From the NCBI RefSeq assembly GCF_003334255.1, contig NZ_QOWU01000023.1: a stretch of 64,000 nucleotides of DNA, one strand, 5' to 3'. The notes under the pieces were generated by a model. That model was not told where the DNA came from, searched no databases, and was given only the letters and a program-made list of their open reading frames with translations. Of the stretch, positions 1-45,062 are shown one piece after another. The stretch's first letter is position 1; each line of letters opens with the position of its first letter. This DNA comes from Escherichia coli (lineage in GTDB: Bacteria; Pseudomonadota; Gammaproteobacteria; Enterobacterales; Enterobacteriaceae). The position numbers were made by a program, and so were the translations under genes.

Positions 1-189
1 CCGTGGCGTTACTACAACGATCGCGATGTACGCACAATCGTTGAGCTGGGGAAAGCCATAGACTTCGATGCCAGAACTGCTACCCCATTCGAAGGTGAGC
101 GCCATAATGCACTTGATGACGCCCGTTATCAGGCAAAATACGTTTCAGCTATCTGGCAAAAACTGATCCCGAGTCAGGCTGATTTTTAA
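1..189 (+). CDS. 3' end of a prophage DnaQ-like (DEDDh) 3'-5' exonuclease; CDS is truncated by the window start
   Basis: Open frame from position 1 to TAA at 187-189 translates to ...ERHNALDDARYQAKYVSAIWQKL..., containing an H-x4-D exo III-type motif. It lies directly upstream of xis and int on the same strand, as exo-xis-int does in lambda. Confidence 0.45.
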   Translation, partial: PWRYYNDRDVRTIVELGKAIDFDARTATPFEGERHNALDDARYQAKYVSAIWQKLIPSQADF

Positions 190-252
190 TGTTCAACCCC
201 GGTCGTTGCCACCAGCTATAGTGGCGGCGACCATGATTAGCGAACGACGCTC

Positions 253-501
253 ATGGCAAGACTTATTCTGCTCACTGAGTGGGCAAAAGAGGAATTCAGT
301 GAACCGGTCCCTACTCCGAGTACGTTAAGTAAATACGCTAAAGCCGGAATGATATTTCCTCTCCCCAAAAAAGTTGGGAGACGCTGGCGAGTGGATCCGC
401 AAGCTCGCTTTGTCGGAATGGTAAACAAGCCGGAGGTGATCGCCACAGATCACCCTGCTTTGAAGAGGATACTGGAAGATGGCGCGCCCGCGAAAATATA
501 A
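253..501 (+). CDS. xis: Phage excisionase (lambda Xis-like)
   Basis: 82-aa ORF whose N-terminus (LILLTEWAKEE...MIFPLPKKVGRRWRV) resembles lambda Xis; its 3' end overlaps the start of int by 23 nt. Confidence 0.6.
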   Translation: MARLILLTEWAKEEFSEPVPTPSTLSKYAKAGMIFPLPKKVGRRWRVDPQARFVGMVNKPEVIATDHPALKRILEDGAPAKI

Positions 502-1609
502 AACCGATGTTCCGGGATTATCTCCGTATTTTGACAAAAGAAATAACAAAGTTTACTGGCGTTACAGGCATCCCATAACAGGCAAAAATCACGGTCTCGG
601 CAGTATTGACCAGAAACTGGCAGAAACTATTGCAGCAGAAGCGAACAGCCGTCTTGCCCGGCAGCAAATGGAACAAATGCTCAGTCTGCAGGAGAAAATT
701 ATTAGTGATACCGGCGGTTCATCAACCGTTACCATTTTTCTGAATAATTACAGAAAAATTCAACAGGAAAGATATGAAAACGGCGAGATCAAACTCAACA
801 CGCTGAAACAGAAAGCGGCCCCTCTCAGGGTATTTGATGAACGTTTTGGCACCAGACCGTTAGATGCCATAACCGTAAAAGATGTGGTATCAGTACTGGA
901 AGAGTACAAGGCCAGAGGACATAACAGAATGGGACAAATTTTCAGGAAGGTACTGATCGATGTTTTCCGGGAAGCTCAGCAAACGGGCGATGTACCGCCA
1001 GGCTTTAACCCTGCAGAATCGGCAAAAAAACCGCAGGTGCGGATATCAAGACAGCGACTGACTTTTGATGAGTGGATGATGATTTATAACGCAGCGGAAA
1101 AGGATGGTTACTTTTTACAGCGCGGTATGCTGCTGGCACTGATGACAGGCCAGCGCCTTTCAGATATTTGCAAAATGCAATTTTCGGATATCCGGGATGG
1201 TTATCTTCATGTCGAACAGCAAAAAACAGGAACCCGGATTGCCATCCCTCTGGCTCTGCGTTGCGATAAATTAAATCTCACCCTGGATGATGTGGTGTCA
1301 TCCTGCCGCGATTGCGTTCTTAGTCCGTGGCTATTGCACCACCATCACGCGAAAGGGACAGCTAAGCGCGGCGGGATGGTTAAGCCAGCAACATTAACCG
1401 TTGCATTTAAAAAAGCCCGGGATTCTGTGGATTACAACTGGCGTGCTAATGGCACCCCTCCCTCTTTCCATGAGCAGAGATCTTTATCAGAGCGATTGTT
1501 CAGAGAGCAGGGGGTTGATACCAAAATTTTGCTAGGCCATTCGAATCAAAAAATGACCGATATTTACAACGACGCACGCGGTAAGGAATGGAAAAAACTG
1601 GTCATTTGA
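479..1609 (+). CDS. int: Phage tyrosine integrase (lambda Int family)
   Basis: 376-aa ORF with the length and xis-int arrangement of a lambdoid integrase; it ends 45 bp from the ompW stop codon. Confidence 0.85.
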   Translation: MARPRKYKTDVPGLSPYFDKRNNKVYWRYRHPITGKNHGLGSIDQKLAETIAAEANSRLARQQMEQMLSLQEKIISDTGGSSTVTIFLNNYRKIQQERYENGEIKLNTLKQKAAPLRVFDERFGTRPLDAITVKDVVSVLEEYKARGHNRMGQIFRKVLIDVFREAQQTGDVPPGFNPAESAKKPQVRISRQRLTFDEWMMIYNAAEKDGYFLQRGMLLALMTGQRLSDICKMQFSDIRDGYLHVEQQKTGTRIAIPLALRCDKLNLTLDDVVSSCRDCVLSPWLLHHHHAKGTAKRGGMVKPATLTVAFKKARDSVDYNWRANGTPPSFHEQRSLSERLFREQGVDTKILLGHSNQKMTDIYNDARGKEWKKLVI

Positions 1610-1616
1610 TGACCAG
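1598..1616. terminator. Perfect inverted repeat (ctggtca-tttga-tgaccag) spanning the int stop codon; candidate terminator or att-core element
   Basis: 7-bp stem and 5-nt loop read directly from the sequence, followed by a T-run on the + strand. Confidence 0.4.
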
Positions 1617-1650
1617 TTTTGCAGAGGGGTTTTGCAGAGGTTTTGCAGAG
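1616..1650. repeat. Short tandem repeat, about three copies of a 12-bp unit (gttttgcagagg), between the int and ompW stop codons
   Basis: Read directly: gttttgcagagg / ggttttgcagagg / ttttgcagag. Confidence 0.7.
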
Positions 1651-1654
1651 AAAA

Positions 1655-2293
1655 TTAAAAACGATATCCTGCGGAGAACATAAACACCCACGGATCCAGT
1701 CGCACCGAGTCTTTTACGGTAGTAACACCAGATTTGTACTTAGCCGTGGTATCGATATCCATGTACCACACTGACATGTTAACCAACCAGTCACGGTTAA
1801 TCAGATAATCAACCCCCACCTGCCCGGCAGCTCCCCAGGAATCTTTCAGACTGAGATCGGAAAGCCCTGCCTCTTTGCCATGATCGTTAAATCCATTATC
1901 AAAGAAGGTGGTGTAGTTAATACCTGCCCCAACGTAAGGACGGAATTTGCTGCTGGCATCACCAAAATACCACTGCGCCATCAGTGTTGGTGGCAGATGA
2001 TGAACGGTTGCAATATCGCCGGTCGCCCGGGTGCCGATTTTATGGCGGAACGGCGTCGCTGCCAGTAATTCCACACCAATGTTGTCGGTCGCCATATAAG
2101 TAAACGTAAGGCCCAGTTGCGTGTTATTGGTCACGCTGAATCCACCCAGACTTCCTAACGTACCACCAGCACCTTCTGTTGGACGTACGGTTGCAGAACC
2201 TGCACGCATAAAAAATTCGCCTGCTTCATGCGCAAAGGCACTGCCAGAGAGAAGAGTTGTTACTGCCAAAGCCGCCACTGTTAACTTTTTCAT
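1655..2293 (-). CDS. ompW: Outer membrane protein W
   Basis: 212-aa ORF with a signal peptide (MKKLTVAALAVTTLLSGSAFA) and C-terminal ...GYRF; position next to yciC matches K-12 synteny. Confidence 0.95.
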   Translation of the reverse strand: MKKLTVAALAVTTLLSGSAFAHEAGEFFMRAGSATVRPTEGAGGTLGSLGGFSVTNNTQLGLTFTYMATDNIGVELLAATPFRHKIGTRATGDIATVHHLPPTLMAQWYFGDASSKFRPYVGAGINYTTFFDNGFNDHGKEAGLSDLSLKDSWGAAGQVGVDYLINRDWLVNMSVWYMDIDTTAKYKSGVTTVKDSVRLDPWVFMFSAGYRF

Positions 2294-2396
2294 ATCCGCT
2301 CCGTCGTTATGGTTATAAAAACGTGACGAATATACCTACATTGGAGTAACAAATGATCCTACATAGATCACATTACATATGATAATTCACCCTTTA

Positions 2397-44659: not shown

Positions 44660-45062
44660 CAGTTATATCTCCTCCGATGACGGTAATCGGGGGAGATAAT
44701 ATAAATTCCTGCTTATTGTATTTCTTCATACTACCTGGACAGGTCGTTAATCAGAATTGCGAGCCTGTACCACACCCTGCACGAAACCACTGCAACAGCT
44801 GTTGAAAAGCCGGAATGTACTCTTCATTGCAAACATTTCAGGGATGAAGTGAAGATGAATTGCGACGTAGTATCCACACCAAGCCGGCGTTATCCGGTGA
44901 GGCGCAATGTTGCGGGGCTTTATCCCTGGTGGCATTGGTTGCTGGAAAGAGAAAACCCCCGCACGTTGAGAGGTAAAACCTGACAACAAAACGGGGGCTA
45001 ATCTTGAAACCAGACACTTCAAGAATAGCCGCAAAATGTTGTCATTACAACAAGGCGGCTAT

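Follow-up and report, generated by a model that had tools for sequence, protein, structure and literature searches.

A lambdoid prophage of the PPompW type in the 3′ part of Escherichia coli ompW: its integrase-proximal end

A stretch of 64,000 nucleotides from an Escherichia coli genome (assembly GCF_003334255.1, contig NZ_QOWU01000023.1; the whole of this stretch is called the window below) begins with the end of a phage exonuclease gene, followed by the genes xis and int and, on the opposite strand, by the outer membrane protein gene ompW. Such a junction raises the question of where the prophage stops and the host chromosome starts: in the short spacer between int and ompW, or within ompW itself. 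Window positions 1–1773 almost certainly represent the integrase-proximal end (attL in lambda nomenclature; att, attachment site) of a PPompW-type lambdoid prophage that entered the 3′ part of ompW through site-specific recombination by Int. The coordinates of the features are collected in Table 1.

Lambda-like prophages located in ompW, designated PPompW, were described by Nakamura et al. (2021, PLoS Pathog; PMC8112680; GenBank LC567818–LC567841), who found them in 44% of 767 complete E. coli genomes and confirmed the 121-bp attL/R by sequencing attP from mitomycin C-excised circles. Bobay et al. (2013; PMC3603311) also count ompW among the prophage hotspots that are most often occupied. A megablast comparison of window positions 1–1654 with phage records gave 12 full-length matches at 99.3% identity; 11 of these carry the name ‘Enterobacteria phage PPompW_...’ or belong to Stx2a phages nested in a PPompW, and the twelfth is an unannotated record, Escherichia phage 204576. 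The PPompW records annotate intE, xisE (at the position of xis), an exonuclease and a ‘duplication due to insertion of PPompW’. The segment is 99.3–99.7% identical to annotated prophages, and chance is therefore not an issue. Membership of the family is defined in PMC8112680 by an integrase gene more than 90% identical over more than 90% of its length; the identity here is 99.3% and extends over the whole of int, and the protein accession WP_000113674.1 is that of the annotated Int in lysogens too. The likeness to the published element comprises the exo–xis–int DNA, the insertion into ompW, the 121-bp att segment, the spacer repeats and the hairpin. Members of the family in enterohaemorrhagic and enteropathogenic E. 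coli (EHEC and EPEC) carry loci for type III secretion system (T3SS) effectors and internal attB sites, whereas the window shows the end of the element only.

A first-pass annotation, made from the letters of the window alone, had read exo–xis–int as one edge of a lambdoid prophage integrated at the ompW 3′ end, and this is upheld by the Pfam and PHROGs domains as well as by the identity to the PPompW records. Its suggestion that the locus might be novel has to be given up: the element, its target and the att sequence are already known from publication, and the family is a common E. coli prophage whose integration site is a known hotspot. In K-12, yciE, yciF, yciG and trpA come after ompW. Among 5,426 complete E. 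coli genomes, the junction with ompW is present in 1,706 (counted when a genome place covered at least 80% of window 1–2300) and the uninterrupted ompW–yciE arrangement in 3,432; the empty site that had been attributed to K-12 is indeed found there, and prophage-free genomes show a junction that differs from that of the window.

What lies behind this end, to the left of position 1, can be judged from relatives. Phage genes stand upstream of the exonuclease gene in every relative examined, which agrees with the earlier expectation that the remainder of the prophage lies in that direction. Positions 1–1654 are identical to strain DETEC-S792, in which early, replication and regulatory phage genes stand upstream, and several complete genomes, including strain G1/2, are 99.9% identical to the window over 25 kb. 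The G1/2 prophage is about 58 kb in length and extends from a 126-bp ompW remnant beside yciE to the intact ompW. It contains Rac-like early genes (racR, ydaT-like, dicB) and genes for replication, antitermination, lysis, head and tail; its far end carries ISEc12, a SPATE-like autotransporter (S6 peptidase fragments and a β-barrel) and a gene with a YadA C-terminal domain. Many of the G1/2 prophage genes are annotated as frameshifted, possibly as a result of sequencing error. In EHEC O145:H28, the corresponding region holds the T3SS effector genes espO, nleG and espM. Judging from these genomes, PPompW cargo is variable by lineage, and the earlier remark that any novel content would lie in this part outside the window is fair.

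These relatives bear on the alternative that survives best, namely, that the exo–xis–int module of the source genome is a remnant only, either a decayed or truncated prophage or an int islet. The window shows nothing to the left of position 1, PPompW prophages are often defective through insertion sequence-mediated deletions and pseudogenes (PMC8112680), and the G1/2 copy has its many annotated frameshifts, though these may be sequencing errors. Against this stand the open frames of int, xis and the visible end of the exonuclease gene, all of them intact, the gene content upstream in DETEC-S792 and the head, tail, lysis and replication genes of G1/2, the one fully surveyed relative. A mere remnant is thereby improbable, and a complete prophage in the genome from which the window derives is inferred.

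The course of the junction itself can be followed along ompW. Read in the direction of the gene, the window does not differ from K-12 until the end of a 28-bp block, CAGTGTGGTACATGGATATCGATACCAC (1773–1746). Directly after the block, 26 of the 49 positions at 1697–1745 differ from K-12, and the sequence there is the attP version; the last 44 bp of ompW, through the stop codon and an adjoining TAATT, have one mismatch to K-12, and divergence is complete beyond. As a whole, the 121-bp att segment of the window is 77.7% identical to K-12 attB, with mismatches at 27 of 121 positions, 26 of them at positions 29–77 of the segment. The 28-bp block is the only stretch identical between attP and attB and contains the inverted hexamers GTGGTA/TACCAC flanking a GATATC centre. 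An intact attP is available in the record of phage 204576, where int is followed by the hairpin, three repeats, the variant ompW tail (one mismatch to the window), the 28-bp block and phage DNA.

A second copy of the 121-bp segment stands beside yciE in relatives. At the far end of PPompW_132418, unrelated phage DNA continues up to CAGTGTGG, after which come a K-12-type tail with two mismatches and the K-12 downstream sequence; this far-side junction begins 121 bp upstream of the point where K-12 homology ends (1653). In the lysogens retrieved with a chimeric query, the far-side remnant starts exactly at that same base (query positions 121/128 onwards). A four-way alignment with the int-side junction, the far-side junction and the empty K-12 site has the reciprocal pattern expected for a crossover at the 28-bp block: on the int side, the block has host-type sequence to its left and phage-type sequence to its right, and the two are exchanged on the far side. 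On these alignments, strand exchange must have taken place within the 28-bp block or at its edge, and the window from 1745 leftwards is, by the same comparison, phage DNA, the final 29 ompW codons included.

A mechanism can be proposed on this basis. The phage attP carries an ompW-like segment of 121 bp; its first 28 bp are the same as in the host, some 50 bp of diverged sequence follow, and the last 44 bp are near-identical through the stop codon. Exchange in or at the 28-bp block would join host codons 1–183 to phage-borne codons 184–212, and the native tail of ompW would be displaced, leaving the 126-bp remnant beside yciE at the far prophage end. For annotation, the prophage boundary belongs inside ompW (about 1746–1773), not in the intergenic spacer.

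The spacer is where a boundary would be sought at first sight, and the first-pass annotation had accordingly put the att site within about 1598–1654. According to such a view, the prophage would sit just downstream of an untouched ompW, with the att core in the 45-bp spacer. The two genes are convergent, ompW is full length, and 45 bp separate the int stop codon (1607–1609) from that of ompW (1655–1657), a distance that had been given correctly; since the last 44 bp of ompW and the TAATT are near-identical to K-12, the K-12 homology appears by eye to stop at 1653. However, spacer positions 1610–1652 have no K-12 counterpart and are contiguous phage DNA in the intact attP of phage 204576, the far-side junction begins at the CAGTGTGG position well upstream of the apparent end of homology, the stretch of about 50 bp at 1697–1745 is of attP type, and the published att is 121 bp long and lies within ompW (PMC8112680). 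An att core in the spacer therefore deserves hardly any credence. The att duplication is the 121-bp segment of ompW (1653–1773 in the window, with the attP/attB-identical block at 1746–1773) and not the segment 1598–1654. The first-pass interpretation was right in kind, wrong about the att position, and missed the phage origin of the last 29 ompW codons.

The position of the crossover within the gene was examined further with two chimeric queries. Query A, the variant ompW tail joined to the K-12 downstream region, was run against the 5,426 complete genomes, none of which matched it over its full length above 95.7%, the level of the K-12 allele; the variant tail therefore never occurs there without the prophage. 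Query B, the K-12-type tail joined to the phage spacer, had a match of at least 99% in three of about 1,720 lysogens (HH97, MLI104K2 and 2013C-3181), and two further intermediates were found at 96.3%. Because the K-12-type tail adjoins int in so few lysogens, a crossover upstream of the variable patch is the rule. A crossover in the distal 44-bp homology was also considered, and both searches argue against it. That the divergent tail (residues 185–194) is a natural host allele unrelated to the phage is likewise scarcely believable: allelic variation of ompW does exist in E. coli, some genomes matching the region at only about 90%, but the variant tail is never joined to the native yciE region in the complete genomes, it is present in the intact attP of phage 204576, the displaced far-side copy in lysogens is of K-12 type with two mismatches, and the only species-representative genome with an exact match, from Escherichia albertii, has the tail beside the same int.

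In that genome, E. albertii NBRC 107761 (NZ_BBMY01000048.1), the same exo–xis–int–att module is joined past the 28-bp block to the interior of rlmC, not to ompW. The junction creates a chimeric open reading frame in which an rlmC fragment is fused to the phage-borne OmpW tail; this may be a case of secondary-site integration or a rearrangement. The scan for exact matches, with one genome per species, returned E. albertii only and gave no lead on a donor of the ompW-like segment.

Several points weigh against the reading of the locus as a PPompW end recombined within ompW. Only 1.6 kb of the prophage is visible in the window, and completeness and cargo in the source genome are thus not covered. 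The far-side att copy lies outside the window, in which the int-side copy alone is seen. Within the 28-bp block, the rlmC junction of E. albertii would put the exchange at the extreme left edge, not at the GATATC centre. The three lysogens with a K-12-type tail beside int suggest gene conversion between the two 121-bp copies or the existence of attP variants. Finally, a simple consensus promoter and terminator scan did not flag the hairpin at 1594–1620 that is discussed below.

Table 1. Features of the int-side prophage end and of ompW, in window coordinates
Feature	Position	Strand	Evidence
Phage exonuclease gene, 3′ end (62 codons and TAA)	1–189	+	Translation; frame open at left window edge
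xis, 82-aa excisionase	253–501	+	phrog_629, E = 3.7e-35; Pfam Exc PF07825, E = 1.4e-7
int, 376-aa lambda-type tyrosine integrase	479–1609	+	Pfam and full-length alignment to lambda Int
Perfect 12-bp inverted repeat with 3-nt loop, around the int stop	1594–1620 (arms 1594–1605 and 1609–1620)	both	Repeat search, 100% complementary
Three exact direct copies of GTTTTGCAGAG, spacing 13 and 11 nt	1616–1650	+	Repeat search
121-bp att duplication, copy on the int side (B-O-P′ junction; attL of lambda)	1653–1773	−	repeat_region in LC567822; alignments; PMC8112680
ompW, intact, 212 aa	1655–2293	−	NCBIfam equivalog NF008202
28-bp block CAGTGTGGTACATGGATATCGATACCAC, shared without mismatch by attP, attB and the two prophage junctions	1746–1773	−	Alignments

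The OmpW protein of the window matches NF008202 along residues 1–212 of 212 with 402 bits (cut-off 287). Codons 1–173 of its gene are of host origin, codons 174–183 belong to the shared block and codons 184–212 with the stop are phage-derived. The protein is identical to K-12 OmpW at 205 of 212 residues, and all seven differences (N185K, L188S, G190V, A191T, Q192T, Q193V and H194K) are within residues 185–194. OmpW of lysogens, O157:H7 included, is a host–phage chimera, and about a third of sequenced E. coli carry the phage-derived tail. With the tail supplied by the phage and the putative hairpin terminator of the spacer, ompW remains full length and is presumably still expressed.

Proteins of the OmpW family form barrels of eight strands; their extracellular loops are long, their periplasmic turns are short, and loop L3 includes a small helix (PMC2993939). 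The variable patch sits between the last two strands, WLVNMSVWYMDIDTTA and VRLDPWVFMFSAGYRF, when strands are counted from the L3 helix region. By the generic topology of eight-stranded barrels and this strand count, residues 185–194 would be in extracellular loop L4, at its tip. A single-sequence AlphaFold2 model of the window OmpW had a mean pLDDT (predicted local distance difference test) of 28; it was unusable and gave no support for the L4 placement. OmpW is the receptor of colicin S4 (PMC2649078) and, in other genera, also that of some phages (PMC10132071). It is conceivable, though rather doubtful, that PPompW integration amounts to lysogenic conversion of OmpW, in which an altered L4 changes recognition by colicin S4 or by OmpW-dependent phages, benefiting the lysogen or excluding competitors. 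The literature searched contained no statement of OmpW conversion through a phage-borne tail, nor a test of a changed L4. If true, the conversion of this loop would be a modest example of conversion through the att site itself.

The inverted repeat around the int stop folds into a hairpin of −14.9 and −14.4 kcal/mol on the two strands (z = −4.2 and −5.5), and none of 200 shuffles folds as well. The hairpin is followed by U6 on the ompW strand and by only U4 on the int strand, and it takes the place of a native hairpin (−16 kcal/mol) found downstream of ompW in K-12. For ompW it is the likely terminator; the same role for int is less clear.

The direct repeats that adjoin the hairpin are probably P′-arm (arm-type) sites for the N-terminal arm-binding domain of Int; this putative role is plausible because Int has an arm-binding domain of the lambda type. 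A fourth copy of GTTTTGCAGAG, in the same orientation and with one mismatch, is present on the other attP arm of phage 204576, about 120 bp past the 28-bp block, and none of 200 shuffles of the attP locus of this phage gives four matches. In the far arm of PPompW_132418, GTTTTGCAGAG was not found with up to one mismatch; the 9-mer CTGCAAAAC is conserved at the corresponding place there according to the alignment. The number of GTTTTGCAGAG(G) copies varies among lysogens, being three in the window, two in G1/2 and five in O157:H7 E32511. If the repeats are arm sites, this variation might affect the efficiency of integration or excision.

The genes on the phage side of the junction agree with such an organisation. 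The Int protein contains the Pfam domains Arm-DNA-bind_1 (PF09003; residues 2–71, E = 1.6e-21), Phage_int_M (PF22022) and Phage_integrase (PF00589; E = 2.4e-16). Its alignment with the lambda Int structure (PDB 5j0n) spans residues 14–375 (E = 8.5e-56), and the catalytic R, K, HxxR, H and Y positions are conserved in it; the aligned motifs are TGQRLSD/TGQRVGD, EQQKTG/EQSKTG, FHEQRS/FHELRS, LLGHS/LLGHK and IYND/QYRD. With both the arm-binding N-terminal domain and the catalytic residues present, the protein is assigned by its sequence to the lambda-type (heterobivalent) tyrosine integrases. The 3′ end of xis overlaps the start of int by 23 nt, and its product is a small Exc-domain (winged-helix) protein encoded directly upstream of int, as is typical of lambda Xis-like excisionases. 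NCBIfam had no useful family for int or xis; PHROGs and Pfam assigned both.

The translated exonuclease fragment includes HNALDDA, in which HNALDD would correspond to motif III (H-x4-D) of the DEDDh exonucleases, motifs I and II being to the left of the window. The fragment is collinear, at 100% identity, with the end of an 823-aa exonuclease gene in DETEC-S792. Residues 641–813 of the latter protein match the Pfam family of Rv2179c-like 3′–5′ exonucleases (PF16473; E = 2.7e-60), and the protein matches phrog_2082 along its whole length (1838 bits). The window fragment would accordingly be the C-terminal part of an Rv2179c-like domain of the DnaQ/DEDDh fold, and the DEDDh label given to it in the first-pass annotation is reasonable, with PF16473 in the full-length homologue and motif III alone in the window.

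The prophage end resembles phage lambda in having a full-length homologue of lambda Int with arm-binding N-terminal domain and catalytic residues, a xis gene upstream of int and overlapping it, and an attP that adjoins the 3′ end of int. Lambda attP has three P′ sites (P′1–P′3) on the int-proximal arm. The three direct repeats on the int-proximal arm of the PPompW-type attP resemble this layout, their arm role being putative here. There are also differences. The PPompW-type target is inside a protein-coding gene, in contrast to the intergenic gal–bio attB of lambda; the homology between attP and attB extends over 121 bp (28 bp exact), compared with a 15-bp common core; and the motif GTTTTGCAGAG is unrelated to the lambda arm sites.

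The strategy is shared with phage 21 and e14, which integrate into icd with duplication of its 3′ end (Wang et al. 1997, as cited in PMC3603311). In both cases, attP holds a diverged 3′ end of the target gene, and integration within the open reading frame leaves the gene at full length, its C-terminus now encoded by phage DNA. The two systems differ in target gene and in integrase specificity, and the replaced part of OmpW would include a surface-exposed loop of an outer membrane protein, whereas in icd it is the end of a cytoplasmic enzyme.

Other observations concern the host part of the window. Between ompW and yciC, at about 2533–2622, the intergenic sequence is annotated in DETEC-S792 as a partial ‘YkgJ family cysteine cluster protein’ pseudogene. 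At 44950–45015, on the minus strand, there is a single match to an rdlD-type antitoxin RNA (91.8 bits). K-12 has a tandem ldr/rdl array in the same neighbourhood, and by comparison with this array the copy number may differ. At the tyrT/tyrV locus (27492–28698), three tRNA-Tyr(GTA) genes (27492, 27786 and 28080) are interleaved with, and then followed by, RtT repeat elements, five in number. As the K-12 locus has two tRNA-Tyr genes, the three genes look like a tandem copy-number variant.

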